This document shows, in pieces, positions 151-64,000 of a stretch of 64,000 bases of DNA (position 1 is the stretch's first letter; the number at the start of each line of letters is the position of its first letter). Both the position numbers and the translations under genes were made by a program. This stretch comes from a virus, in the IMG/VR virus record IMGVR_UViG_3300047388_000292, positions 34,428 to 98,427 of that record, one strand, 5' to 3'. Under the pieces are notes generated by a model that saw nothing but the letters and a program-made list of their open reading frames with translations, was not told the DNA's origin and ran no database searches.

Positions 151-1062
151 TTACGGGAAAGGCCACGGTCCAGTCAACATTCCCCACCCTCTTCCGCCTG
201 TCATGAGACCCTCAGTACGAAGAGGATTCCTTGTCACATACCCAGGATCGAGCAATCCGCTGAGAGTCGACGCCGGCAATGGTGTTACGGTGCGCATCGC
301 CAGTCCGGGCTGGATCACCATCAGGTCGCGCCACTCCTGCGTGAGCTCGCGAACTAACCGCGGAGCAAGCTCTTTCAGCGACGCGATCATGTCCGGATAG
401 GACGTGACCTCAGAGGTCTGCGTCGAGCTTGCTGTCTTCCACTGACGAGACCAGAACTCGATAGCCGGATTGATGAGTTGGAGCGCAAGCCGCTTGGACA
501 GATAATCGAGGAAGACAATCCCAAGCCCTGATTCGGAGTCCGGGGAGACCGTTGTCCCGAGCACGCGCCACTTGATCACCTCGGCCTGCTGCTGCAACCA
601 CAGGTCACCGAATCGCTCGTCTTTGCGCAACGCCGACAAAGTCAGCGGCATATGCGCTGTGACGCCCATGACGATCATCCCAATCTGAGACCCAACTCCG
701 GGTCCGTGATCTCCAATGTAGATCGGGAATTCCGGGGAATCCTTCGGCCCAAAACCAGGCAGAACGAACTGCCACCAGGCCATGAAATCGCCTTCTCCAA
801 GGGACGATATATCGGTAGTCAGCCAGTCATGGCGTACGTTGTTCCCGTCCTGATCAGTTGGATAGATCGTGATTGCATTCGGTACTGATGGATTGATGAC
901 GGGGGCTCTCGAGATAAGTGGACGTACAAAGATCGACACAGTCGCCCCCGGAACCATTGCAATCACCTGACCGTTCAGAATGATCGAGTCGTAGATGCTT
1001 CCAGGTGCATCAATTGGAACAAAGACCGGCGTGCGTTGAGAGGGGATAGTACCCGGGCTCAT
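151..1062 (-). CDS. Putative virion protein (head-completion/adaptor-like)
   Basis: 303-aa ORF, translationally coupled downstream of the structural genes. Function inferred from position only. Confidence 0.45.
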   Translation of the reverse strand: MSPGTIPSQRTPVFVPIDAPGSIYDSIILNGQVIAMVPGATVSIFVRPLISRAPVINPSVPNAITIYPTDQDGNNVRHDWLTTDISSLGEGDFMAWWQFVLPGFGPKDSPEFPIYIGDHGPGVGSQIGMIVMGVTAHMPLTLSALRKDERFGDLWLQQQAEVIKWRVLGTTVSPDSESGLGIVFLDYLSKRLALQLINPAIEFWSRQWKTASSTQTSEVTSYPDMIASLKELAPRLVRELTQEWRDLMVIQPGLAMRTVTPLPASTLSGLLDPGYVTRNPLRTEGLMTGGRGWGMLTGPWPFP

Positions 1063-3689: not shown

Positions 3690-4448
3690 CTACAAGATCC
3701 CTCCTTGGGGAGCCATGAACGGGATTGCCCGAAAGCTCGGCTGAGGGCCCACCACAGCAGCGGCGGGCGTCGATACGACCTCCAGCACAACGATCGTGTA
3801 CGGGCCGGTTGACGTGCCGGAATAGCCGAACGATTGCGAGCCGGTGGACGTCTCATCGTCCAGCTCGGTTAGGTAGAGGGTGTAGTTCGTGCTGAACGCC
3901 TGCGCGAACGGCGACGCTGTCGGCCCCGGCGCACCCGAGCCGTGAGTGGTCGCCGCGGGCGACGGCGACTCCACCGCATGCGCCGACCAGTCGCCCGCAG
4001 CCCAGCAGACGGACGAATCCACCTTCGTCATCGTTATCGCCCCGGTCTGCGGCGATGACGTCGCGCCCGTCACCAGCTGAGACGCCCCGACCGAGATCGT
4101 GTCGGTGCCCTGCGCGCGGAACTGATAGACGCCCATCCCCATCGCCATCGCAGCGCTGCTGGGACAGTTGGCCGTGATGATGCCGGAGCTGCCCGCGGTC
4201 GCGACGGCAGTCCATACGGCCACGCCACAGTCGGTTCCCGTCGTGCTATGGACTTGCTGCGGCGTCCAGGACAGACCCGATCCCGTGTTCGTCGGCGCGC
4301 TCCAGGCGTGCGACCCGTTGCCTTCGTTCCCCGCGAGGCAGACGAGAACATCACCCGTCTGCCACGTCAGTGTTGCCGATGCTTGGCTGTTGGTTCCGGT
4401 GGTGCCGCTGTTGGCTGAGGAGAACGCGATGAGGGTTGGCGCGGCCAT
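3690..4448 (-). CDS. Putative virion structural/minor tail-type beta protein
   Basis: 252 aa, with GDVLV...AG and VWTAVAT patterns typical of actinophage minor structural domains. Confidence 0.5.
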   Translation of the reverse strand: MAAPTLIAFSSANSGTTGTNSQASATLTWQTGDVLVCLAGNEGNGSHAWSAPTNTGSGLSWTPQQVHSTTGTDCGVAVWTAVATAGSSGIITANCPSSAAMAMGMGVYQFRAQGTDTISVGASQLVTGATSSPQTGAITMTKVDSSVCWAAGDWSAHAVESPSPAATTHGSGAPGPTASPFAQAFSTNYTLYLTELDDETSTGSQSFGYSGTSTGPYTIVVLEVVSTPAAAVVGPQPSFRAIPFMAPQGGIL

Positions 4449-4451
4449 CGT

Positions 4452-4844
4452 CTACAGCGTCTCGTAGACAACCGACCCTGAGATCGTCGTTGGCGCTGTC
4501 GCCGTCAGGATGACCTGAAACGCCGTGTCGGTCGGGAACGGGGAGCCGATGCCGACCGACATCGTGTTCTCCGTGACCGTCACGCCTTTCGTGGTCACGG
4601 TCCCTCCGAAGAACGTGGCCGAGCCGATGTCACGCCACGTGGCGCCATTGTCGAGCGAGTATTGAATGTCGATCGTGAGCGCATCGGCAGGCGTGAGCGT
4701 GTTCAGCCACGGGTGGTTGCCGGCGCCGGCGCGCTCGATGATGACCTCGGCCTGCGACCAGGGCTGCGCGCTGTGCGCGAACGTGTTGAACGCGGTTTGC
4801 CCGGCGGCCAGCGTGATCGTTGGAATGTTCTGCGTTACCGACAC
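4452..4844 (-). CDS. Hypothetical protein (beta-sandwich-like, 'IQYSLDNGATW')
   Basis: 130-aa ORF co-oriented in the operon. Confidence 0.5.
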   Translation of the reverse strand: MSVTQNIPTITLAAGQTAFNTFAHSAQPWSQAEVIIERAGAGNHPWLNTLTPADALTIDIQYSLDNGATWRDIGSATFFGGTVTTKGVTVTENTMSVGIGSPFPTDTAFQVILTATAPTTISGSVVYETL

Positions 4845-4868
4845 GGCAAAGCCCCCCGAGAGGTTGGT

Positions 4869-6695
4869 TTACGGGTTGATCGGCGTGCCGTCGTCGTAAC
4901 GGTTCCCCGCCCCCCACACGTTCCCGGAGTCGGTGCCGCGCTGGTGGACGGTGCCGTTGTCCCAGCCCGCGATCGGGCCGTACACGCCGCACTGGCCGGT
5001 GACGCCGCGCCCGAAGACGTTATTGGCGATGTAGTCGCCGATCGTCGGATACGGCTTCTGCGTTCCCTGCCCCGGATACAGGCAGACCGCGACTTGGCTG
5101 CCGTCAGCATAGTTCGGTCCGGCGGGAGCCAGATAGTTGTATTCGGCGTCGAGCGTGACCTGGTTGAAGTCGGGGAACACTGACAGGTCGCCTGAGCAGC
5201 CTGCGTTCCCGCCGCCGACAACTGCGCCCGGTAGCGTGGCGGCCTGGTCGCCGCAGTTGATGTAGTCGTGAATGGCGGTGAGCTTGTTGCCCGGCCCGTT
5301 GCCGTTGCCACCGATCCCGTTCATGTGGAATGTGGATTGGACGACGAGGCCGTGCTCCCACGAGTCCTTGACGATGCAGTTCCCGTCGCAGTGGTCGGGG
5401 CCGTTGCCGCCGTGATTGTTGACGTGGTCCTCGTAGAAGTTGCCGTAGGAGATGTTTGCGCGGTTGACCTGGATCGTCGACCCGTCCGATGCGGTGTAGG
5501 TCGGCATGTCAGCCGTGTCGATCTCGTCGTAGCTCATCACGAGCGGGCCGTTGACGTCCACGTAACCGATGACCTTCGAGTTCTTCAGCGTCACGCACGG
5601 CGTCGCCGGGGAGCTGGTGCCGTTGCCAGCGTTGTCGGAGAAGCTGCCGGTGATGAGCAGGCCCGAGATGGTGACGTTGCACGAGTTGACCTCCACGGCC
5701 TGATTGCTGGCGTTCCAAGTCCAGCCCGGGCCGGAGGTCGCGTCCTGCGGGACGCGCGTGAGGACCGTTCCGGCCGGCACGCCGGTGCTGCTGGGGCCGG
5801 GCCAGCAGCCGCCCCACGGGTCGGGGCTGTCGGGCGCGTTCGGGGTGCTCGCCGGGCAGTTGCCGCTCGGCGTGGTCGACGTGGTGCTCGTCGTGCTGGT
5901 TGTGGTGGTCGGCGTTGTCGAGGTTGTCGAGGTGGTGGTCGGCGTCGTGGTGCTCGTGGTCGTGCTGGTCGCTCCGGTCCCCGAGACGTAGGCGCTGACC
6001 GGATTGGAGTTCCACTGCAGCGCGGGCGAGTAAGGGTTCGGGAAGCCGCTGCCGGACCAGTCGAGATTCGACCCGCCTGAGCCCATGTCCCGGTAGCTGA
6101 TCGTGCCGCCCGTCTTAGCGCCGAGCGCGATCCAGTACCGGGTGCCGCTGGTGATGCTCGCGTCGCCGGCCAGCGGGACGGTCGCCCACCCCGCCGCGTT
6201 AGAAGCGATGGTGGCGGTGTCGAGGCGGGCGCCCGGCTTGCCTGCGCTGTCGGCATACAGTCCGACCTGCGCGCCGTCCGTGGAGTCGAGGTACACGCTT
6301 ACGCTGGCGGCAGTGCCGGACGCACCGGCCGTGTAGCCGAATGCCTCGCTTGCAGGCGCAGAGCTTCCGTCGTGGGTGCCTTGGACAGTTTGGCTTCCCA
6401 GCAGCACCGTGCTGGGTGGAGGAGGGGGGGGCGTTGTCGGGACGGTGAAGCTGCCGATGATCGTTTCGGTGTGCGCGCCCGGCGCAAGGCCCGTCTGATT
6501 CAGCGGACTCGTACAGGCAGCCGGCGTGCCGCCGTCAAGCGAGCACTGGAAAGTCGCGCCCGGCTCATCGGACGAGAAGCTGAAGGATGGGCTTGAGCCG
6601 GCGCCGAGGGCGACCGCGCCGCCGATCCCGAGGATCAGCGCGAGGAGGCCGAGGACGATGTAGGTGGTCAGGTCGGGCTTGTAGATTCGGCGCAC
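4869..6695 (-). CDS. Secreted multidomain protein (signal peptide, Ig-like domain, DUF4082-like domain, Thr linker, beta-helix-like C-terminus)
   Basis: Hydrophobic N-terminus (YIVLGLLALILGIGGAVALG), SFSSDEPGATFQCSLDG Ig-like motif, Pro and Thr linkers. Probable GTG start at 6695 (ORF track gives 6725). Confidence 0.6.
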   Translation of the reverse strand: MRRIYKPDLTTYIVLGLLALILGIGGAVALGAGSSPSFSFSSDEPGATFQCSLDGGTPAACTSPLNQTGLAPGAHTETIIGSFTVPTTPPPPPPSTVLLGSQTVQGTHDGSSAPASEAFGYTAGASGTAASVSVYLDSTDGAQVGLYADSAGKPGARLDTATIASNAAGWATVPLAGDASITSGTRYWIALGAKTGGTISYRDMGSGGSNLDWSGSGFPNPYSPALQWNSNPVSAYVSGTGATSTTTSTTTPTTTSTTSTTPTTTTSTTSTTSTTPSGNCPASTPNAPDSPDPWGGCWPGPSSTGVPAGTVLTRVPQDATSGPGWTWNASNQAVEVNSCNVTISGLLITGSFSDNAGNGTSSPATPCVTLKNSKVIGYVDVNGPLVMSYDEIDTADMPTYTASDGSTIQVNRANISYGNFYEDHVNNHGGNGPDHCDGNCIVKDSWEHGLVVQSTFHMNGIGGNGNGPGNKLTAIHDYINCGDQAATLPGAVVGGGNAGCSGDLSVFPDFNQVTLDAEYNYLAPAGPNYADGSQVAVCLYPGQGTQKPYPTIGDYIANNVFGRGVTGQCGVYGPIAGWDNGTVHQRGTDSGNVWGAGNRYDDGTPINP

Positions 6696-6696
6696 G

Positions 6697-7173
6697 TCAG
6701 CTCGCCAGTTCGGTGTTACCGGCATCCGTGCGTTGGTATGGGCCTGGATGCGATCCTTCTACTAACCCAGCCTCAATCAGCAAATTGAGCTGCTCAAACA
6801 CTTGCCGAATCGTATCCTCGAGCGTGCCCGATATATCGAGCTTATCGGCCTCTGGATTCTGCGGGTTGAAGGTATGTGGGTCCAGCATCAGAGACCGAGT
6901 CAGCGCAGCCAGAGTGTTTCGAGGGCCATACGCTGTCTCATCTTCCTCATCTGCTATGAACCCGAGGACACGTCTAGTTAGAGACAAACGCTTGAACTTT
7001 GTTTCTGGTAGCACAGCACCAGGACCACCACCTGCAGTGAGGCTGACGCTCGCCCGAACACCAAGCATAAGAGCGGCTGCTACAGCAACCGGATCAGTCA
7101 CCTCTGGCGTGACTCCCTCGGGGATAGACGCAACGTCTGCGGGAGTGATCTCGATCGAATCTGAAGCTTCCAT
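6697..7173 (-). CDS. Hypothetical protein
   Basis: 158-aa ORF with strong SD (GGAGGAGG). Confidence 0.6.
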   Translation of the reverse strand: MEASDSIEITPADVASIPEGVTPEVTDPVAVAAALMLGVRASVSLTAGGGPGAVLPETKFKRLSLTRRVLGFIADEEDETAYGPRNTLAALTRSLMLDPHTFNPQNPEADKLDISGTLEDTIRQVFEQLNLLIEAGLVEGSHPGPYQRTDAGNTELAS

Positions 7174-7182
7174 CGCCTCCTC

Positions 7183-7818
7183 CTAACTTCCGGTGATGGA
7201 TAGTGACATCGCAGCCGAAGCGATTGTGGGCGGAGTTTGGGTCGTGCTGATTACCGTGCTCGTGACACTCGCGACCCACAGCAAGTTTGAGCCAGAAATC
7301 GTCGCCGAGTCGCTGATGCAGAACCCGAGCAGCGTCGAGGTCGAGGCCGTGCAGGCGCCCCAAGTGATCGCACCATTGTTCGTTACGACCGACGGGGTAG
7401 CGCTGGTCGCAGCGTTTGTCCATGTGCCGACCGTAGGTGTCAAGATCGCGTAGCCGGTGTAGGCTGCAACGGTTCCCGCAACGGTGGTGCCGGTGCTCGC
7501 GGTGGTCGGCGCAGTCGTGAGCAGTGATAGGCCGATGACGGCCGGCAGTGTCCACTGCGAGCCGTGGCCGACGCACATGTCGCCAACCTTCGCCATCGAA
7601 TACTGCGCCATCCCAGTAAGCGCAGTCGGACAACCAGCCGCGTCGAGCTCGCGAGCGATCTCCAAACCTTCGGGAATTTCGTGTGCGGCTAGGTTGCAGA
7701 TGTCCTGAAGCACATCCCGGAAACGCTCGATATCCTCGAGCCGCGTGTTCATCCAACGCTTGCCGTACTCGGTAAGCCGTGCTGGTTCAAGCTCGAGATA
7801 GACCGGCTCAATGCTCAT
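7183..7818 (-). CDS. Putative phage structural protein (tail-fibre-associated type)
   Basis: C-terminal half (IGLSLLTTAP...GYA...VTNNGAITW...GSNLL) resembles a common phage structural family. Confidence 0.5.
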   Translation of the reverse strand: MSIEPVYLELEPARLTEYGKRWMNTRLEDIERFRDVLQDICNLAAHEIPEGLEIARELDAAGCPTALTGMAQYSMAKVGDMCVGHGSQWTLPAVIGLSLLTTAPTTASTGTTVAGTVAAYTGYAILTPTVGTWTNAATSATPSVVTNNGAITWGACTASTSTLLGFCISDSATISGSNLLWVASVTSTVISTTQTPPTIASAAMSLSITGS

Positions 7819-31085: not shown

Positions 31086-31113
31086 CTGCTCGATAACCCG
31101 CATTACGGAGACC
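31086..31113 (+). repeat. dif-like site 1: CTGCTCGATAA-CCCGCA-TTACGGAGACC
   Basis: 11-6-11 layout with the inner ATAA/TTA core of XerCD sites. Confidence 0.55.
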
Positions 31114-31115
31114 TG

Positions 31116-31418
31116 ATGAAACGCGACGACATCAACGTGGAGGCCGTGAAGTACCAGATCATCGTCCAAGGCGACGATGGCGACGAACTATGGGAGGCCG
31201 ACAGCGACTATGAAACCAATCGCGGCAAGGCGCGACTCGCAGCAAAGACGATGTTGCGCTTCGGTCGGCGGATGGTCACGCAGCCACCCGAAGCCGCCCG
31301 CGACGTGGAACTAATCGCCTACATCTACGAGGGCAAAATGGTCAACGTCGGCGACGAGACCGACGAGGATTGGGTGTTTGAGTCCGACCCAGCCATCCAA
31401 GCCGAGATCGTCCACTAA
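31116..31418 (+). CDS. Acidic hypothetical protein (cassette 1)
   Basis: 100 aa. Fills the space between dif-like sites 1 and 2; its SD lies in the right arm of site 1. Confidence 0.65.
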   Translation: MKRDDINVEAVKYQIIVQGDDGDELWEADSDYETNRGKARLAAKTMLRFGRRMVTQPPEAARDVELIAYIYEGKMVNVGDETDEDWVFESDPAIQAEIVH

Positions 31419-31456
31419 CGCTCGATAACGCGGTCTAGCGACCCCTTACGGAGACA
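31418..31456 (+). repeat. dif-like site 2: ACGCTCGATAA-(17 nt)-TTACGGAGACA
   Basis: Same arms as sites 1 and 3, with an elongated hairpin-forming spacer (GGTC-TAGC-GACC). Confidence 0.45.
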
Positions 31457-31460
31457 CGAT

Positions 31461-31676
31461 ATGGAAACCACACACCCGCCACTGCTCGGCCTCGGTGCCG
31501 TGCTCGCACCCGAGAGCGAGGAGCTAGCCACTCGCCAGCGGGACGCCTTCAATCACGCCGCTCTGGCCTACTCAGAGGTTACCGGAGCATGTGTGCCAGA
31601 GGCCATGCATCGGGCCATCGACACCTACCTCCGCGTGATGCGCGAGGGGGTTCATAACGAAACGACACCCGCGTAG
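31461..31676 (+). CDS. Hypothetical protein (cassette 2)
   Basis: 71 aa between dif-like sites 2 and 3. Confidence 0.6.
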   Translation: METTHPPLLGLGAVLAPESEELATRQRDAFNHAALAYSEVTGACVPEAMHRAIDTYLRVMREGVHNETTPA

Positions 31677-31680
31677 CGGA

Positions 31681-31709
31681 ACGCTCGATAACGTCGTCTT
31701 ACGTCAAAC
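31681..31709 (+). repeat. dif-like site 3: ACGCTCGATAA-CGTCGTC-TTACGTCAAAC
   Basis: Right arm matches the E. coli XerD arm TTATGTTAAAT at 8/11 positions; 7-nt spacer. Confidence 0.6.
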
Positions 31710-49189: not shown

Positions 49190-50848
49190 CTACGGCGTCC
49201 CGCGCTTCGCTGGATTCTCTTCGCCGTATCTCATCGAGAACTCTCGAGAGCACCGCTGACAGGTCAGATGAGCGTTGTCGCGGAGCACCTTGAGCTTGTT
49301 CACAACCTTGCGTACCTCATGTGCCTGCTGCTCGTACGCCTGCACTTGTGGATCCACGTCAATGAGAGCCTGCATCTGATCCTTCGTTGGTGCTTTGCCC
49401 TCACGAGGCAAATTACGCACCTCGGCTCCACGCACGTTCTTCAACCGCTCGAGATCATCGATCTCATCCTCGTGCTGAGAGATGACCCAATTGAGCCGAC
49501 TCTCGACAGCGTGGAATCGTCCGTGAACCGAGCGAAGCTCCTCGTCGGAGATCTTCGAGATGTCTCCCGGCAACTTTGGAGGATCATCGATGTCGGGCGG
49601 AATCGGAGCCTTCTCCCTCGCGATAACCGCCATCGCCCGCTCAGATCCGGATGCAACCTGCACGGACGGAGGAATGATCGGCACACCGGCAGCCGCCGCA
49701 CGCTCCTTCGTCTCGCCGGGGACAGCGAGACTGGGCGGTGAAAGAAGTGCGACGGCTTGGGGCAGTGCCGGCGGGGTAGGAGAAAATGCCGCAGATGGAT
49801 CCAAGAAGCTCTCGCCCTGCGGTCTGGTAGTTGGGCCGGCGGGGTAGGAGATCATCTCCCCGAGCTCGACGTCTGAGAGGTTGACGACATCGACGCGGCC
49901 ACGACGCCAAGCCTTGAGCATGGGCCCGGTAATCTGCTCCTCGAGCTTCGCGCGCTCAGCCGAAATACCAGCAGATACTGGCTGCTGAGCTACACCAGGC
50001 GCAGCAAGCATAAGCTCAATGTGCTCGGTGGGCATCTGCTCGAGATCTTGGAAAGTCTTGCCGTACGTCTCGAGCACACCCAGCGTGACATGACGCATCA
50101 ACGCAGCACGCCGCTCATCTTCCGTAAGCGCTTGAGCGGCAGGTCCCGGCCCTTGCTGACTCGGTTGAGGAGTTTCATGCCCTGGGTCAACGGGGGCATT
50201 GGCGAGGGGCCGAGGCTGTCCTGCAGCGTCAATGCCTCCCGTAGGTAGCTGCTGTCCTGCGACTTCTGGATCCGGTGAAGATGGAATAGTCGGTCCCGCC
50301 GATATCGCAGGCGGTTGGGGTGGCGCCGCTGCCGTCGGCGCTGGCGGTGGGACTTGGGCTTGCGGCTGCGTACCGATGCCACTCTGTCTCCTTATCTGCT
50401 CGGCTCGATGACGTTCGATCTCCACCTTGACCGCTGGGATGCCTTGGTTGGGCATCAGCGCTTCAAGGATCTGAGAAAGCTGTTCGTCCGTCAGCGCCGC
50501 GAGCTGGGGGTCTGACCCATTCGGTTGCGCCGGCGGCGCCATAGGCGCAGGAGCGAACGCTGCGGCCGGATCAACCGTAGGCTGCGCAGCAGGCGGATCC
50601 GGAACACTATCGGACTTCTGGTCTACATCAGCGAGAAGACAGATCTGACTGACTTCTTCCCGCGTATTTCCGTTGTCCCGCGCTCTGCGTGCCTGATACA
50701 CCATCGTCGCTGCATCAGTCCTTCTCATCTCAGGATCAGTCGGGACCGAACCGTCATACATTCCTGCCTTGATCAAGTAGTCGATGATCGCGTCTACCTG
50801 CTCATCGTTCAAAACTACCTGCTGAATCGGATCAGTCGTTGCTGACAC
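49190..50848 (-). CDS. Pro/Gln-rich protein with a C-terminal coiled coil (possibly UvsY-like mediator)
   Basis: In the recombination operon. The C-terminal helical region 'LIDVDPQVQAYEQ...' is only weakly suggestive. Confidence 0.4.
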   Translation of the reverse strand: MSATTDPIQQVVLNDEQVDAIIDYLIKAGMYDGSVPTDPEMRRTDAATMVYQARRARDNGNTREEVSQICLLADVDQKSDSVPDPPAAQPTVDPAAAFAPAPMAPPAQPNGSDPQLAALTDEQLSQILEALMPNQGIPAVKVEIERHRAEQIRRQSGIGTQPQAQVPPPAPTAAAPPQPPAISAGPTIPSSPDPEVAGQQLPTGGIDAAGQPRPLANAPVDPGHETPQPSQQGPGPAAQALTEDERRAALMRHVTLGVLETYGKTFQDLEQMPTEHIELMLAAPGVAQQPVSAGISAERAKLEEQITGPMLKAWRRGRVDVVNLSDVELGEMISYPAGPTTRPQGESFLDPSAAFSPTPPALPQAVALLSPPSLAVPGETKERAAAAGVPIIPPSVQVASGSERAMAVIAREKAPIPPDIDDPPKLPGDISKISDEELRSVHGRFHAVESRLNWVISQHEDEIDDLERLKNVRGAEVRNLPREGKAPTKDQMQALIDVDPQVQAYEQQAHEVRKVVNKLKVLRDNAHLTCQRCSREFSMRYGEENPAKRGTP

Positions 50849-51926
50849 CAGCCATCTCCTCCTGTCGTCTACTTAGATCCTCGGCACCCCACCGGAACAG
50901 CACCGAAGAGCGCTTCTGTTCAAGATCGTAGTCCGGCCGAATCCCTCTTGCGAATCCTATCAGGTTGGAGTCCGAAAGTCTCATGGTCTTGTTCTGATAG
51001 TCCGTCTTACAAAATGCTCCCTTGAAATCACAGTTAGCACAGGCAGGAGCGGTCCACTTCTTAGCTCGGCCCTCGTACGGATGAGCAGGAATTTCCCCTC
51101 GAAGGAAGTAATCCCTCCACTCCGCGAGCCTCACGCGTCCTACAGCGAGGAACTCAGGGTCGTAGAACACCCGAAACGACGCGGTGGTCAGAGGATCCTC
51201 GCGTGAGCTGTAGATCAGCGTCCCATCATCTGGTGGCATCAGCGGGATCGACTCGAAAGCACAGCGCTGACCGTGGATCGGACAGATGTAGTCGTCTCGC
51301 GACGAGATGATTGCTCCAGACTCGTTGCAGATATGAACGGTCGGCGTGTAAGGCATCTCGTGCGCGAGACCGATATATGTTTTGAGCTGCCTCACATACT
51401 TCGGATGCTGTAGCGGGAACGTCGGCTTCTCCGCACGCATCGCGAGCACTTTCTCATGACTCGTAGTCTTTATCTCGACCAAGTGAGGCTTCATCCATCC
51501 ACGCGGTAGAACGATCGCATCGCAAGATCCTGTGAGCCAATGCTCCTCATCCTCGAACCCGGTCTGGAAGTCATCCTCAGCAGTCACATCAGCGGAAAGA
51601 AGCACCCCGTAATTCCGCAGCCGTCTAATCCAGTTGTGCTCCAATGCATTGCCAATATCAAACCACGCCTGCAGAAACGGTTTCCTCGGCGCCGGCGCTG
51701 GAGGATCAAGCAATCCATAGACCAACTTTCGCCCACAGGCATCAGGATCATCACCAGGGAAAGAACTCGCGTGGAACGAAGAAAACCAAGGTTGACCATG
51801 AGGAGAACGATCTTCACTGCGCCACTCTTGTTCAAGTTCCTGCTCGTACGCAGCCATGATCAACGGAGAAACAACTGGGGCATGCTCCTCAACCATTGCC
51901 CACAATTGAGTGCGCGAAAGTCCCAT
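50832..51926 (-). CDS. Cas4/AddB-like PD-(D/E)XK exonuclease with Fe-S cysteines
   Basis: C.RK, G..D, EIKT, QL..Y and C..C......C motifs. Confidence 0.75.
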   Translation of the reverse strand: MGLSRTQLWAMVEEHAPVVSPLIMAAYEQELEQEWRSEDRSPHGQPWFSSFHASSFPGDDPDACGRKLVYGLLDPPAPAPRKPFLQAWFDIGNALEHNWIRRLRNYGVLLSADVTAEDDFQTGFEDEEHWLTGSCDAIVLPRGWMKPHLVEIKTTSHEKVLAMRAEKPTFPLQHPKYVRQLKTYIGLAHEMPYTPTVHICNESGAIISSRDDYICPIHGQRCAFESIPLMPPDDGTLIYSSREDPLTTASFRVFYDPEFLAVGRVRLAEWRDYFLRGEIPAHPYEGRAKKWTAPACANCDFKGAFCKTDYQNKTMRLSDSNLIGFARGIRPDYDLEQKRSSVLFRWGAEDLSRRQEEMAGVSND

Positions 51927-52408
51927 TATGCCCCCGCCAACATCGCTCGCTTGATTCTGCAAATCGTCGCCTGCCCCACTCCATATTCTTTAGCGATTTC
52001 CCGCTGGGTACGAAGATCCTTAGATATCGCCTCTACCTGTTGTACATTCAACTTCGACCTTCCATCAAATATCGCATGACATCGGTCACATAGCTCAAAC
52101 CAATCCGCAAAGTTCAACGTATACCTATGACCAATACACGCATACTCGGTTTTAGCATCCACGCGACCGCAATATTCACATCGACCGCTGTATGGATATA
52201 TTTCCCGCATCAATTGATGAATACGAAAATACGGGCTCGCAAAATGTCCGCCCCCTAACTCAACAACATGGCTAAACCAAGATCTCTCACGATTATATTT
52301 GGAGAAAGATGGGTCTCCATATCTGAGCCACCGCTTGTAATGCTTGGCGCATAACCCACGCGCCCTGACTACTCGGTTACAGTCAAGAACTGAACAGATC
52401 TCGATCAT
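51926..52408 (-). CDS. HNH-like homing endonuclease
   Basis: N-terminal C....C....ARGLC..HY finger, CEYC...LC..CH, and a C-terminal HTH. Confidence 0.7.
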   Translation of the reverse strand: MIEICSVLDCNRVVRARGLCAKHYKRWLRYGDPSFSKYNRERSWFSHVVELGGGHFASPYFRIHQLMREIYPYSGRCEYCGRVDAKTEYACIGHRYTLNFADWFELCDRCHAIFDGRSKLNVQQVEAISKDLRTQREIAKEYGVGQATICRIKRAMLAGA

Positions 52409-53541
52409 CCCCCCGACATCATTGCCCTACGAATTCTTTGCTGGAGCATCGGATCGCCTGAGATGAGATAGCAAAGAGCGTCCATCCCGTGCGCCGACTT
52501 CTCATATCCATCGGGCCGATAAAACGATCCACTCTGAATCACCATCGGAGAACGTCCCGACCGATGCGCTAGCTCTCCCTGCTCGTCGTAGGCGAGCGAT
52601 GCCTCAGCCAACTCCCAATCCTGATCGAAGCGCATCGTGTTCAGATCGAGCCGCATCGTGGCATCTCGGAGAGGGCGACACACTCTGCTCTTATTCACGC
52701 GTACCTTCACCTCAGTACCATCAGCCTGCTTCGTACCCCGCGGGTCATCCTTGAATGTCTCCTTGACCTTGTCGTAGACATCGAGACGCCCATTTTTGTT
52801 GTAGTAAAGATGCGCGCCCTTCTTGAGGTGAATCGAGAGGTCAGATCGAAACGCCATTCGCTTGCCAGACAAGGCATACTCAACCTTGTTCATATCCTGA
52901 GAAGCATGATCGATGATTACGATCGCGTTCTCATCCTTGTCCATGCGATGATGAATTCGATTGATCGCAAACTTCCAAGCTCGAGCGTGGAGCCCTTGCT
53001 GTGAGTAGACGTCGTACTCCGGACGCTTTGATCCCTTCGGACCAGCGATCTCGCCCATCGGTGTAGCGAACGAAGCAGAGTCAAGAACATGTAAGTGGAT
53101 AGATCCGAGGGCCAGTTCCATCGCTCCGGCTATGTCCTCGATCAGCGTGTATCCCTCAAACAGTTCCAGCTTCTCCAGGTCAATCCCGAACGTCGCCGCG
53201 TGAACAGAATCGAACTGCCCCTCGATATTCCAATACGCAGTCGTGATCCCATCCGGGAATCGCTCTGATCGATACTGCTGAGCCGCAGCGATGATGTAGT
53301 AGGTGATCATCGTCTTCCCTGTCGAAGTGTCTCCCCACAACCTCGTAATGCGACCCATAGGTATGCCAGCAATCACACGCCCCTCATCATCGTGCGTCGA
53401 AATGATCCGCATAATCTCCGGCAGAGGAAGAGGGATCCGCTCAACAGGAATCTGATCAGAAGCACGATGAAGAGACTCGTTCCCGTAACGCTGACGCAAA
53501 AGCTTTGAATCACGATCGAATAACGACACATCCACGGTCAT
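52405..53541 (-). CDS. recA: RecA/UvsX-like recombinase
   Basis: GIPMGRIT.LWGDTSTGKT, EGQFD, VLDS, NKSR motifs. Confidence 0.85.
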   Translation of the reverse strand: MTVDVSLFDRDSKLLRQRYGNESLHRASDQIPVERIPLPLPEIMRIISTHDDEGRVIAGIPMGRITRLWGDTSTGKTMITYYIIAAAQQYRSERFPDGITTAYWNIEGQFDSVHAATFGIDLEKLELFEGYTLIEDIAGAMELALGSIHLHVLDSASFATPMGEIAGPKGSKRPEYDVYSQQGLHARAWKFAINRIHHRMDKDENAIVIIDHASQDMNKVEYALSGKRMAFRSDLSIHLKKGAHLYYNKNGRLDVYDKVKETFKDDPRGTKQADGTEVKVRVNKSRVCRPLRDATMRLDLNTMRFDQDWELAEASLAYDEQGELAHRSGRSPMVIQSGSFYRPDGYEKSAHGMDALCYLISGDPMLQQRIRRAMMSGG

Positions 53542-57000: not shown

Positions 57001-57630
57001 TCACCCCCTCTCAACCAACTCCGAGAGATGCTTCCAACTACGACGTTCTACTATCGCCTGAATGGTCGTTCTCGCAACACCATACTTCTCGGCAAGAAAA
57101 GTTTGCCTTGATCCGGTTGCATACTCTTGCAGAATCTCTAGAACCTGTTCCTCATGCAAGATCGCTTGTCCGTGCTTCTCTCCGGTCGTCGGATTGTGAC
57201 GACCGCGCCGCATCTTGTCAGCCATGTTGTCAGCTTGCGTTCCTGCGTATAAATGATCTGGGCGAACGCAATTCGGAACATCACATGTATGCAAGACCTG
57301 AAGACCATCTTGAACACATCCAACCAACAGCCTGTAAGCAAATACGTGAGCGCCAATAAATTTCCCGTCAACCCAAAGCTTCCCATGCCCAAAATCATTC
57401 GCTGGAGTACCAGTCCAAAGCCAACATGTATCAGTCTTCTCGACATGCAACCAAAAACGCGTTACAGGATCTCCGTATCCAACACGATTTGAAATAAGCG
57501 GATTGCCATGCTTTGCCCATCGCTTGTAGTGCATTGAACACCACCCGCGCGCACGCACCTTACGAAAACACCCGTCTACAGAACAGGAGTCGTCGCTATG
57601 TCTGTGAAGCTCGATGTACTGCATGCCCAT
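57001..57630 (-). CDS. HNH homing endonuclease with a DnaE-derived N-terminus
   Basis: CWLWTG...AH...VLHTCD...CV.PDHL..GT..DN and HTH. Begins MQYIELHRHSDDS. Confidence 0.85.
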   Translation of the reverse strand: MGMQYIELHRHSDDSCSVDGCFRKVRARGWCSMHYKRWAKHGNPLISNRVGYGDPVTRFWLHVEKTDTCWLWTGTPANDFGHGKLWVDGKFIGAHVFAYRLLVGCVQDGLQVLHTCDVPNCVRPDHLYAGTQADNMADKMRRGRHNPTTGEKHGQAILHEEQVLEILQEYATGSRQTFLAEKYGVARTTIQAIVERRSWKHLSELVERG

Positions 57631-60313: not shown

Positions 60314-61330
60314 TCAGATAGGTACAACAGTAATCGAGAGCGCTGGTACCACGCCCTCCACCAATTCCTCAATCTCCTCAGCACTCAACTCCGCGGCGTC
60401 TCCCTTAGCACCTACGACTACAGACACGGGCATATATGGAGAGAGCATCTCGATCGCCTTCTGACGACCTCTCACCCCAGCCGAGTCTTCATCGAAATAG
60501 ACGACAACGCTTCCGCACCGCTCAACAATCAATGCTCGTTGAGTCTCAGAGAACTCTGAGCCGGCGACTCCTACCGCAAAGATATGCGGAGTCTTCTGCG
60601 ACATCGCTACAACATTGAGTTCTCCCTCAACGATCACTACTTTCGACATCCACGGAACTCGATTCAGACCATAGACATGCTTTGACTTATGATACGGATC
60701 AAAGCCATAGCGAGGAATGTCGCTTCTCCGCGCGTCTCCCAATATCAGATAGCGCGGCTCTTTGTTCCCAAATGTTCGCGCCTTGAAACCCACAAGCGTT
60801 CCCATAACATTCCTCACTGGTATCGCAACACGCCCTGAAATGGGATCAAAACCGATCTCCCAATCGTCAAGCACCTCTCGCTCAAACCCACGTCCACGCA
60901 TATAAGAAATCGATGTTCGTCCCTCAGAGTTCATCCGCCACGATTTCATGAAGAACTCAACCCAAGACTCTGTGGGCAATACCCTCCCATCCGGCATCGT
61001 CGCCCTGATCGGCGTGAGGTTCCGCTTGACCTCCTGCTCGAGCTCACCAATCGCCTCAGTGGGACCAGATCCATATCGACGATCGATATGCCCTCGAGCC
61101 TCTGCATTCGTCATTCCGCGAAGTTGCGCGAGGAAAGAGATCGCATTCCCCGTAGCGTGACAAGTCGAACAGATAAAGAGCGTCGTCTTCAAATGCATCC
61201 GCGCCGATGGATGTCGATCATTCCCGTGAAGTGGGCAATGCATCAAGATGTTCTCGCCACTCACGCCGGCGGTCTGAACACCGAGCGCTGAAAGGAAATC
61301 TCGCACATCAACCCGCGAAAAGTCAGTCAT
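60314..61330 (-). CDS. dnaG: DNA primase (CHC2 zinc finger + TOPRIM)
   Basis: CPLH..D.HPS...C..C, VIVEGE, FDED.AG. Confidence 0.9.
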   Translation of the reverse strand: MTDFSRVDVRDFLSALGVQTAGVSGENILMHCPLHGNDRHPSARMHLKTTLFICSTCHATGNAISFLAQLRGMTNAEARGHIDRRYGSGPTEAIGELEQEVKRNLTPIRATMPDGRVLPTESWVEFFMKSWRMNSEGRTSISYMRGRGFEREVLDDWEIGFDPISGRVAIPVRNVMGTLVGFKARTFGNKEPRYLILGDARRSDIPRYGFDPYHKSKHVYGLNRVPWMSKVVIVEGELNVVAMSQKTPHIFAVGVAGSEFSETQRALIVERCGSVVVYFDEDSAGVRGRQKAIEMLSPYMPVSVVVGAKGDAAELSAEEIEELVEGVVPALSITVVPI

Positions 61331-61938
61331 CACCCCTCCTCAACAGGGCCTCGCAGCTCAGCCGCGACACGCTCGCCCTCCTCACGGGACGTGATGCGCC
61401 AGCGAATCCCATCGGCGCAGCCCGCTTTGATCGCCGCCGTGTCATCGGAGATGTAGACCACATCGAGGATCGTGGGTAGCGCGTTCATCGCCCCGCCTCT
61501 CCGGGAACGAGAGCCGTCCAGGGTTCCATATCCTTCTCAACCCGCTCGGACTGCTGCCGGTCGAAAGGACGCGCAAAGTAGGCAGCGTGCTCGTCGCAGA
61601 CTTCGTAGTGGACGGTGTTCTGCTTAGTGCTGAACCATGAGCCCACGTCGAACGCTTGCGTCGCGGGGCGCCTGCACTTCCGATGTGCACATGCTCTCAT
61701 CAAGACGCCTCGCCGGGACTGAAGCGGCGGAACGGGCCGAGCGCTGAAAGGAAATCTCGCACATCAACCCGCGAAAAATCAGTCATCGCCCATCCTCAAC
61801 AGGATCTCGAAGCTCCGCAGCAAGCTCAGCCGCGACACGCTCGCCCTCCTCACGGGACGTGATGCGCCAGCGGATTCCATCGCTGCAACCCGCTTTGATA
61901 GCTGCACGAGCATCGGAGATATAAACCACGTCAAGAAT
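61281..61938. repeat. ~190-bp imperfect direct repeat (61281-61470 vs 61737-61938) covering the primase 5' end and its upstream ORF
   Basis: Near-identical CCGAGCGCTGAAAGGAAATCTCGCACATCAACCCGCGAAAA...; differences are mostly at third codon positions. Confidence 0.9.
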
Positions 61939-63096
61939 TACTGGTCCCACGACTTGCCTGCCTCTCATAGATCAAACACATGTTCGCCCCCTGAGAAATA
62001 GGAGGGTGCCCCACCCAAAAAACTCCCATCCGTGCACAGCTTCCGAGAAACCCCTGCATCTCAGTGCAGCCCGGTGCAGTTGGCTGAGCAGGAAAAACTC
62101 CAGCATCTGCGCAGTTTGCAGCCCCATGCAGCTCTACCAGAGCAGTGCCCCCGGCAGGTCTGATCGACATGAAAGTCTCTGGAAATACAAACAATTCTTC
62201 TTGTGGTTCCCTCCCAAATTCCTCCCATAGCTCTTCTGTATATAGCAACGATCATCGGAGACCCATCGCAAGGTCCAACGCCGACTCGAATTCGTCCACA
62301 TCAAGTCGGCCAGCCAAGTAATGCTCCGTCAACCGCTCAACCGCATCAGGTGCCGAGTAACGTCTCCGGTTCCACTCCGCGGCCAACTGCTGCCAACTGG
62401 CCAGGACCCAGACAACGCAGACGACCATCACAAACACGACTATCTCAATCATCGCCCCGCCTTGTCGGGAACGCTCGCAATCGCCTTCAGCTCATCGAGT
62501 GTGTAGCCAAACCAAAGATCCACGCCACGATCAACGCAGTGATGCGGCCAAGGCCCCTCAACATGCCAGCCACGGATTTCCCATCGGCCATCGGAATGTC
62601 GAAGCACAAGCCCGGAACTAATAACCGTGTTCGGAGGATCGTCGGGCCGATGAAGGCCCTCGGGACGCGGAACTGTGTGCGGAAGAGTCATCGCCCCGCC
62701 TCGCCGGGAACGCTCGGGGAAGGGCGAAGAGTCCGAAACCCGTTCACACTGAGCCTCCCGGCGTCGCAGTTCGGATTCCAGCAGTAGCCCGCCCAGAGCC
62801 CGAGCGGACTACCGTAGACGACCGAGTAGGGGGCGAACCTCAGCCACCATCGGCACTTGGGACAACGGGCCCCGCTCATCGCCCCGCCTCGCCGGAAACA
62901 ACCTTCGGTGACCAGCTCATCGCAGCCACCCAAAGACTCGCCCGACCACCCGCTCAATCCGCGATGGTCGCCGTATATACGCCGTGCCGCCACGCACGAG
63001 CCAGACATAGAAGCAACCGCGCGTCCCGCTGATGACAATCCGATACTCGCGAGACGCCGCCGGAAGCGGCACGCTCGTGCTAAGCGAATTCCTCAT
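61330..63096 (-). other. Array of mini-ORFs joined by a repeated stop/start junction
   Basis: ORFs 62917-63096, 62876-62920, 62688-62879, 62449-62691, 62252-62452, 62061-62255, 61783-61968, 61700-61786, 61485-61703 and 61330-61488. Confidence 0.7.
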
Positions 63097-64000
63097 CGCC
63101 CCGCCTCGCCAAGCACATCTAGTTCCACCTGCTCTACTACCTCGGGCTGCTCGAATGCCGCCCGGATCCGATCTCGAGAACGATCCTTGTAGAGATGAAT
63201 ATAGACCCGCTGACAGACTTCCTCGGAGTTCCCTAGTTGCTCAGCAATGTCTCGGGCCGTCATCCCTCGATCAGCCAACAACGACCCGCAATAGTGACGG
63301 AGCTCATAGAAGTCAAGATGATCTTGTGGATCTTCCTCAAGCCTCTTCGGCAACCAGTGAGTCTTGGGAAGCTCACGCTCGAACGCATCGCGGACAGGGC
63401 GCCAGTAGTAGCCCCAAGATCCTTTCGAAAATGACTTCCCCGTCGGCGTCGTGAAGAGCCACTCAACATGCTGCACCGGCATCGATCGAATCGCATCGGC
63501 AGCCTGCGTCGGCATCACGATCAATCGCTTGCGCTTGGTCTTGGGAAGCTTGAGCCCATCCTTCCGGAGCTGACGCTCAACGTTGACGGTGCCGGCGGCG
63601 AAGTCGAGATCATCATGACGCATCCCGGCGAGCTCTCCCGGCCGGCATCCAGTCCAAGCGGCAAACAGGATCATCGCCCTGAATGTGGACCCGAAGAGCA
63701 CACCGTGAACCTCGACTGAAATATCCCCTAAACGCCGTACCTCGACCTCCGTGAGAGGCGTAATGTCCTGTCTTCCTTTCCCCTCATGGACGAGCATCGC
63801 AAACGGGTTGCCAGCACGATAGCCCTCCATGTAGCGGATCGCGTCGTTGTACATCGCACTGACGGTCTTAGCGACATGGGGTCGATACTCCGCAACTCTT
63901 CGAGCCTCAGCCTTCATGATCCGATCTGGCCTACGATCGCCAAACTCCTCGAGAAACAGACGTAAGTTCGCTGCGTGATAGTCGCACGTAGTCTGCTCTG
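63093..64000 (-). CDS. Tyrosine recombinase/integrase (5' end outside the window)
   Basis: TGCRPGEL, PKT, YELRH, LGN and VY motifs. The reading frame stays open past 63917 to the window edge. Confidence 0.9.
   Translation of the reverse strand, partial: EQTTCDYHAANLRLFLEEFGDRRPDRIMKAEARRVAEYRPHVAKTVSAMYNDAIRYMEGYRAGNPFAMLVHEGKGRQDITPLTEVEVRRLGDISVEVHGVLFGSTFRAMILFAAWTGCRPGELAGMRHDDLDFAAGTVNVERQLRKDGLKLPKTKRKRLIVMPTQAADAIRSMPVQHVEWLFTTPTGKSFSKGSWGYYWRPVRDAFERELPKTHWLPKRLEEDPQDHLDFYELRHYCGSLLADRGMTARDIAEQLGNSEEVCQRVYIHLYKDRSRDRIRAAFEQPEVVEQVELDVLGEAGR

Follow-up and report, generated by a model that had tools for sequence, protein, structure and literature searches.

A short repeat at the stop/start junctions of unrelated small genes in a soil phage is a candidate translational-coupling module

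The genome of an uncultivated soil phage carries a short repeat, which we call R, at successive junctions of small open reading frames (ORFs) that lie between its tyrosine integrase gene and its DnaG-type primase gene. The DNA analyzed here, referred to as the window, is 64,000 nt long and comprises bases 34428-98427 of the 98,427-bp IMG/VR record IMGVR_UViG_3300047388_000292. R makes up the last 18-29 nt of an upstream ORF and ends in an ATGA overlap between the stop codon of that ORF and the start codon of the next. On balance, we think it probable that R is a module for translational coupling, associated with start codons, and that it was copied or recombined as genes were gained in a hypervariable region of ORFans. 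Genes that are unrelated, and whose tails seem not to be ancestral, share one module, which suggests that the module came in when the genes were joined.

Copies and sequence of the repeat

With the 18-mer GGCGAGGCGGGGCGATGA and up to two mismatches allowed, there are five matches in the window, all on the minus strand and all within positions 61485-63110. Three of these are exact (63093, 62876 and 62688), the copy at 61485 has one mismatch and the copy at 62449 has two. The chance expectation is 0.26 matches, five were reached in 0 of 100 shuffles, and there is no further copy in the rest of the whole 98,427-bp record. Three degenerate copies, each matching at 14 of 18 positions, are located at 61327-61344, 61783-61800 and 61697-61714, and they include the native junction before the primase gene. 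An earlier sequence-only reading of this DNA had placed the repeat at these same sites and had listed the protein tails that it encodes; the search confirms the sites, and translation confirms the tails, which read VLGEAGR, VSGEAGR, VPGEAGR, VPDKAGR, VPGEAGR and SPGEAS. All copies are in one phase, such that each encodes the last six to nine residues of the upstream protein, with TGA as its stop and ATG as the next start. All of them lie between int and the primase gene, that is, among non-structural (early) genes.

R consists of a GAGG Shine-Dalgarno (SD) sequence, an invariant 7-nt spacer (CGGGGCG) and the ATGA overlap, and its GGC/GTTCCC flank is conserved as well. When the five strong copies are aligned, 17 of the 24 columns ending at ATGA are invariant, and the copies at 62688 and 62449 agree over 27 of 29 nt. 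Thus positions beyond the presumed limits of SD pairing are conserved. At its 3' edge R is sharp, with similarity ending abruptly after ATGA, and at its 5' edge it is ragged, extending up to 29 nt in some pairs of copies. A sharp edge at the start codon together with a ragged edge upstream fits a start-associated element. The differences between copies include one synonymous change (GGC to GGA) and, in the copy at 62449, two radical changes (GE to DK) with the other nucleotides kept. Together, these changes argue for selection at the level of the nucleotides and not of the peptide.

R is also exceptional among the start sites of its own genome. When 3381 candidate starts were clustered genome-wide by their 15 upstream bases and start codon, R formed the largest family, with five members, and had the most uniform sequences; the other families were loose groups with GAGAGGAG-type SD sequences. 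Other 4-nt overlaps in the genome have SD sequences of the GAGAGGAG or GGAGA type at varied spacings and do not have the spacer of R. Because its spacer is invariant and the other coupled junctions of the genome lack it, R is more than an SD sequence plus ATGA. In this respect, the earlier claim that the repeat is longer than a ribosome-binding site needs holds up.

A chain of overlapping genes

On the minus strand, the order of genes is xis, int, o59, o14, o63, o80, o66, a stretch of ~280 nt without a clear coding signal, orfA', o28, o72, orfA and the primase gene. 3' of the primase gene there follow an SSB-like gene, a MazG-like gene, ThyX, dCTP deaminase, an HNH gene and DnaE. The features of the chain, and one recombinase gene that is discussed below, are as follows.

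63093..64000, minus strand: tyrosine integrase gene (int), the 5' end of which runs off the window; its last 18-24 nt are R copy 1 (PF00589 at 4.3e-14, phrog_1 at 1.4e-36)
63093..63116, minus strand: R copy 1, at the int/o59 junction; 18-mer exact, tail VLGEAGR-stop
62917..63096, minus strand: o59, a 59-aa ORFan ending in ...GWLR-stop in a weak R-like CGATGA junction; no family match, ambiguous coding signal
62876..62920, minus strand: o14, a 14-codon mini-ORF (MSWSPKVVSGEAGR-stop), the second half of which is R copy 2 (62876-62899, 18-mer exact)
62688..62879, minus strand: o63, a Cys-rich ORFan of 63 aa that ends in R copy 3 (last 29 nt, 62688-62716, exact)
62449..62691, minus strand: o80, an ORFan of 80 aa that ends in R copy 4 (last 29 nt, 62449-62477, two mismatches in the 18-mer, tail VPDKAGR-stop)
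62252..62452, minus strand: o66, a small membrane protein with a SHOCT-like C-terminus, ending in ...GLR-stop at an ATGA junction without a clear R; good codon-position signal
61969..62251, minus strand: ~280-nt stretch without a convincing coding signal by codon-position analysis, which interrupts the chain
61783..61968, minus strand: orfA', 61 aa, a paralogue of orfA that lies upstream of it and ends in a degenerate R (61783-61800, 14/18)
61700..61786, minus strand: o28, 28 aa, in which a truncated copy of the primase 5' end is followed by a degenerate R (61697-61714, 14/18)
61485..61700, minus strand: o72, a Cys/His-rich protein of 71/72 aa that ends in R copy 5 (last 24-29 nt, 61485-61513, one mismatch)
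61330..61488, minus strand: orfA, 52 aa; its end and the primase start form a degenerate R (61327-61344, 14/18, TGATG overlap)
60314..61330, minus strand: DnaG-type primase gene (PF01807, PF08275, PF13155, phrog_47; homologues found)
52405..53541, minus strand: UvsX/RecA-like recombinase gene (phrog_97 at 2.1e-25)

The ORFs joined by R are unrelated. In an all-against-all BLASTP comparison they match only in their tails and in the orfA/orfA' pair, and local DNA alignments of their bodies score no better than shuffled sequence. We therefore rejected the possibility that the small ORFs are diverged paralogues of a tandem unit. We also rejected the idea that o72 is a decayed zinc finger of the primase, since BLASTP found no match to the primase N-terminus and the DNA alignment past primase codon 17 was marginal. 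Codon-position GC content supports coding in o66, o72, orfA and o80 and is ambiguous in o59 and o63. For o80, no relative was found among 1.84 billion representative proteins, except for one weak match to a repeat protein. o66 has an N-terminal hydrophobic helix and falls just below the cut-off for PF08044/DUF1707 (1.8e-5, 25.1 bits against a cut-off of 27.6). This SHOCT-like DUF1707 domain is mainly actinobacterial, and its match in o66 is a weak hint at an actinobacterial host.

All ten consecutive junctions from int to the primase gene (10/10) overlap as ATGA or TGATG. Gene pairs with such overlaps were strictly coupled in 13 of the 14 pairs tested elsewhere (PMC6728339), and the chain fits termination-reinitiation. 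A ribosome that ends at the TGA would be retained by the SD sequence seven bases upstream and could reinitiate on the overlapping ATG. In this way, promoterless ORFans, and lastly the primase gene, could be translated as one coupled chain that starts at xis/int. No sigma-70-like promoter or terminator was found at any copy of R in a scan that covered E. coli-type signals only. The primase gene, at the downstream end of the chain, is the first conserved replication gene, and the selective reason for R might be that any insert upstream of it must pass ribosomes on. The proposal that the repeat would guarantee coupling is supported in outline, with R located at ATGA boundaries of unrelated ORFs.

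Tails encoded by the repeat

The tails encoded by R are probably grafts and not the ancestral ends of these proteins, because homologues of both the integrase and o72 end otherwise. Integrase homologues (45-81% identity) end within a few residues of a common position, their last ~15 residues are mutually unrelated, and none resembles VLGEAGR. For o72, similarity to a homologue that is 63% identical (P0171) extends to ...PW/PY-xA, after which the sequence is LVPGEAGR-stop in our phage and GERRDEEAHG-stop in the homologue. A distant homologue, the sole one in viral contigs, ends in ...VKAVAA-stop (contig L241). As a guess from the protein sequence, the tail of P0171 (...VAGERRDEE...) might hide a frameshifted R.

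The contig with the distant o72 homologue, an unrelated viral contig of 38 kb, contains that gene within a chain of its own (4400-7700, plus strand), in which small genes overlap as ATGA or GTGA. Two of the junctions in that chain seem to resemble each other, GAGGCGGTAGGACGATGA and AAGGCGGTGGCAGCGTGA.

A duplication beside the repeat

Part of the chain is duplicated. A 202-nt segment at 61737-61938 and a 190-nt segment at 61281-61470, both on the minus strand, are 90.5% identical with one 12-nt indel. The duplicated segment contains most of orfA (codons ~8-52) and codons 1-17 of the primase gene, and the primase part is identical at 49 of 50 nt. In the upstream segment, the copied primase start breaks off and leads into a degenerate R; the 28-aa o28 is the result, and o72 lies between the two copies. 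The duplication of orfA and the primase 5' end around o72 amounts, on the face of the sequence, to proof of recent recombination in this region. The orfA part has many differences at third positions, and so the two copies would be either old or derived from two diverged phages by an unequal or illegitimate crossover.

Both short ORFs of the chain had been described as recombination scars. For o28, this is supported by its origin from the primase 5' end; the 14-aa o14 exists and lacks comparable evidence. A precise crossover between two copies of R would leave no scar. Thus, the scars record illegitimate joins next to R, and they do not document exchange at R.

Relatives of the phage

We searched for R in relatives of both the primase gene and the integrase gene. 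The primase relatives are 30-52% identical and come from 24 viral, 71 metagenomic and 4 genomic loci (L009-L107); neither R nor an analogous repeated junction occurs in them, and none of the small ORFs has a homologue there. In the closest of them (L033, L034, L012 and L019), a gene for a DnaB-like helicase of 411-428 aa is directly upstream of the primase gene. Because primase relatives have a DnaB-like gene at this place and lack homologues of the ORFans, the interval between int and the primase gene appears to be a lineage-specific, hypervariable insertion zone. orfA, too, has no homologue in viral contigs. There is no near-identical genome on record, and each protein of the phage is found on one contig only.

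Neither R nor an analogous junction repeat was found in the integrase relatives (L108-L115). One of these is L108, in a 74-kb record (IMGVR_UViG_3300044838_000061, here G001) with an Xis that is 68% and an Int that is 70% identical to those of our phage. G001 is a true relative in that most structural and replication genes are common to both phages at 30-55% amino-acid identity and the genomes are syntenic. Its xis-int pair is at a different position in the backbone, with a non-coding stretch and unrelated genes after it; the integration module therefore seems to move within this phage group. The whole 74-kb record has no R at up to three mismatches. As far as the integrase neighborhood of this one relative shows, R does not appear to travel with the recombinase clade, and the proposed co-occurrence of the two finds no support in it. 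In G001, homologues of genes at 2-4.6 kb of our record are found between replication genes.

Exact scans of IMG/VR gave no sign of R beyond chance. The 18-mer occurs in three contigs, once in each; these are unrelated GC-rich viral contigs in which the match ends in ATGA and is followed by a possible gene start. A 14-mer occurs in more than 120 contigs, singly in all 80 of the matches listed, which is also the level expected by chance.

Alternative explanations

The neighboring recombinase was one of two agents that the sequence-only reading had proposed for the array, the other being RecA-type recombination. By the former, integron-like explanation, the enzyme would excise and insert cassettes of one ORF plus R site-specifically at R. 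The layout invites this comparison. The first copy of R is indeed the 3' end of a tyrosine recombinase gene (PF00589, phrog_1), with R starting inside that gene, and the array, like integron cassettes, is made up of promoterless small ORFs in the same direction, each ending in a 3' repeat. However, the molecular features that define integrons are all absent. attC sites are imperfect inverted repeats of ~57-141 bp that fold into a hairpin; R is 18-29 nt long, asymmetric and not palindromic, and the z-scores of 51-nt RNA folds at the eight junctions range from -1.2 to +1.0 relative to shuffles. No known RNA family or tRNA-like attP was found in the region. IntI is a tyrosine recombinase with an IntI-specific additional domain, and its cassette array is at attI, upstream of and divergent from intI. 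In contrast, the array described here is 3' of int and co-directional with it, and the first repeat is inside the int coding sequence. Against NCBIfam tyrosine-recombinase models, the integrase scores only below threshold (28.7 bits against a cut-off of 220 for XerA and 19.6 against 329.6 for XerD), and no integron-integrase model is among the matches. It is paired with an Xis-like helix-turn-helix gene, as in ordinary phage integrases, and by these comparisons it is of the ordinary phage Xis/Int type. In addition, G001 has the related Int and Xis, no R, and unrelated genes downstream. With no IntI-type enzyme, folded attC, attI or divergent intI/Pc layout, we reject the integron-like mechanism and regard this explanation as very improbable.

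Three further explanations concern what R itself does. R could be an mRNA or DNA operator for a trans-acting regulator, such as a T4 RegA-like protein or a small RNA, that switches the early ORFans together, in which case the identity of the copies would reflect binding specificity. The spacer and flanks are invariant at positions not all of which can pair with 16S rRNA, and a like argument has been made for the start-associated sequences (SAS) of mycobacteriophages (PMC3203893). A 4-bp stem, CCCG/CGGG, that presents the SD sequence in a loop is also possible in all five copies, and three C-to-U changes keep G-U pairs. However, this stem shows no covariation (its 3' side never varies among the five copies) and folding energies match those of shuffles, and a conserved RNA hairpin at R was rejected on these grounds. 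A complementary anti-R RNA can be set aside as well, since no complement of at least 12 nt occurs elsewhere in the genome beyond chance. No candidate binder is identified, and an operator would leave the replacement of tails and the confinement of R to 1.8 kb unexplained. We consider an operator improbable; given the invariant spacer, there is still room for a further factor binding to R. Even less can be said for the possibility, which we find hardly credible, that what functions is the C-terminal peptide (V)PGEAGR, perhaps as a degradation or interaction tag, with the nucleotide repeat merely encoding it. Five proteins, including Int, do end in xGEAGR or a close variant. On the other side, the codons are identical across copies, the copy at 62449 has the radical GE to DK change with its downstream nucleotides kept, the tails of integrase homologues are equally long but unrelated, and homologues of o72 do without the tail. 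Lastly, there might be no special element, and the similarity would be due to independent convergence on a good SD sequence and ATGA in a GC-rich stretch, or to chance. In favor of this are the single occurrences of the 18-mer in three unrelated GC-rich viral contigs, each ending in ATGA. Nevertheless, the counts refute chance, the identity covers the spacer and extends to 29 nt, and no such convergence is seen at the genome's other coupled junctions, so that we practically dismiss this explanation.

Mechanism and weight of the coupling reading

Our preferred explanation remains that R is a translational-coupling module tied to gene gain. We infer both its coupling function and the route by which it spread. 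At each gain, loss or duplication of a gene in the hypervariable stretch, R would have been copied or recombined along, and the joins that survived would be only those that preserved coupling to the downstream genes. The joins could have been made by general recombination over very short homology, using the UvsX-like recombinase of the phage or the RecA of its host, or by illegitimate recombination; the neighboring integrase was probably not their maker. The RecA-type route suggested earlier is possible in so far as the phage encodes a UvsX-like recombinase, and it is weakened by the very short length of R.

Several observations weigh against this explanation. The GAGG of R is a weaker SD sequence than the GAGAGGAG type found elsewhere in the genome, and R is therefore not simply the best ribosome-binding site available. 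The putative coupling by itself does not account for the invariant spacer. At 18-29 nt, R is at or below the length of homology that RecA-type enzymes use efficiently. The apparently non-coding gap of ~280 nt breaks the chain, and so the primase gene may have a promoter of its own. The search of related phage contigs for the repeat, suggested earlier, came out negative: R occurs in 0 of ~100 related loci and in none of five whole related records, which is a weak test given that the relatives are distant (30-55% amino-acid identity). With no relative that has R and with IMG/VR matches that are single and at chance level, a gene pool that exchanges by means of R is at this stage hypothetical.

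A bolder form of the idea is that R is itself an exchange point, which related soil phages would have in common and at which they would swap single ORFans by general recombination. We regard this as possible and, on present evidence, rather doubtful. If true, R would be a translational counterpart of the PeSL cassettes of T4-type phages, and an incoming gene would be plugged automatically into the coupled early operon without polar effects on the primase gene.

Comparison with known systems

The closest known kind of element is the SAS of cluster K mycobacteriophages. SAS are 13-bp asymmetric repeats located 3-7 bp before the starts of non-structural genes of many families (PMC3203893; a survey of 188 genomes, PMC12699233). 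They contain an SD core plus conserved positions that are unexplained, and their function is still unproven (PMC3203893, PMC12699233). Similarly, R is short, asymmetric, in one orientation and at the starts of a subset of non-structural genes from different, unrelated families. Both have conserved positions beyond their SD core, and both sometimes overlap the upstream stop codon. However, their sequences are unrelated (the SAS consensus is GGGATAGGAGCCC, that of R GGCGAGGCGGGGCGATGA), and at up to two mismatches R falls outside the cluster K family. SAS precede the start, whereas the start and the overlapping stop are part of R, which always codes for the last residues of the upstream protein. 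SAS are present in 11-19 copies over half a genome and are conserved cluster-wide, and R is present in 5-8 copies within 1.8 kb of one genome. R also lacks inverted repeats like the ESAS of those phages.

In evolutionary role, R is closest to the PeSL cassettes of T4-type phages, which were proposed, and have in part been shown, to be sites where general recombination inserts, deletes or replaces single genes while expression is kept (PMC2839356; PMC4122927). Both are conserved expression signals that flank ORFans in a hyperplastic region. PeSL cassettes are ~100 bp, intergenic and transcriptional, with an early promoter and a terminator stem-loop, whereas R is 18-29 nt, intragenic and translational. 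Exchange of PeSL cassettes is documented by comparison of phi1 and RB49 and by mini-circles, and R is known from the sequence of one genome.

Two other phenomena resemble R in part. Pairs of genes coupled by termination-reinitiation have 4-nt or 1-nt stop/start overlaps and an SD sequence inside the upstream gene (PMC6728339), as here, but each ordinary pair has a sequence of its own, and in our phage one sequence is reused at successive junctions. The short conserved sequences that have been proposed as boundaries in phage mosaicism, and a ~50-bp repeat at which cluster I mycobacteriophages recombined (PMC3029335), are likewise direct repeats located where modules meet and open to general recombination. 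They are found at single boundaries and are not reported to carry a translation signal. R is thus distinct in being translational, in including the stop/start overlap, in having a C-terminal heptapeptide as a by-product and in its confinement to 1.8 kb of one genome.

R reveals no new recombination system. If the module works as we propose, the phage could go on acquiring small accessory genes ahead of an essential replication gene while the latter stays active, and every newcomer would inherit a standard signal for the hand-over of ribosomes. R would also then be a second example, unrelated in sequence and overlapping the stop/start codon, beside the unexplained SAS of mycobacteriophages.

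Other observations in the genome

Over 213 nt and with a single mismatch, window 63788-64000 repeats the beginning of the record. Although the record is labelled linear, the genome therefore assembles as a circle or a terminally redundant molecule, with a unique length of 98,214 bp. The integrase gene spans this junction, leaving the end of the window and resuming at the start of the record. The Xis/MerR-like helix-turn-helix ORF is at record bases 433-651 (minus strand), outside the window, and shares a TTGA overlap with the integrase start, which is preceded by a strong GAGAGGAGGAGAG SD sequence; in G001, the ORF before int is 68% identical to it.

The stored gene calls for the primase and integrase genes (60314-61333 and 63093-63917, minus strand) are shorter than the ORFs. 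The primase call (P0001) is 266 aa long and the ORF 339 aa; homologues align from residue 1 of the ORF, which is therefore the right one. The integrase call (P0083, 253 aa) may simply have been cut by the end of the record.

The replication module contains, on the minus strand, the gene for the UvsX-like recombinase, one for an exonuclease with a Cas4 domain and at least three HNH endonuclease genes (52405-53541, 50832-51962, 51926-52408 and 57001-57630). In the ~280-nt stretch between o66 and orfA', which has no match in Rfam, there is a 15-nt direct repeat, CTGCAYSGGGCTGCA, at 62065-62079 and 62117-62131 (minus strand), 52 nt apart. At up to two mismatches the window has three matches to it, compared to 0.48 expected for a pattern that was itself derived from both exact copies. 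The pair may be an operator or an attP-related site.

A second, unrelated boundary repeat, GCTCGATAAC...TTACGGAGAC, occurs at 31086-31700 (plus strand) before three successive small genes, as read from the sequence only. Its right part provides the SD sequence. That this repeat brackets single small genes suggests that the reuse of boundary signals is a habit of the genome and not a property of the integrase.

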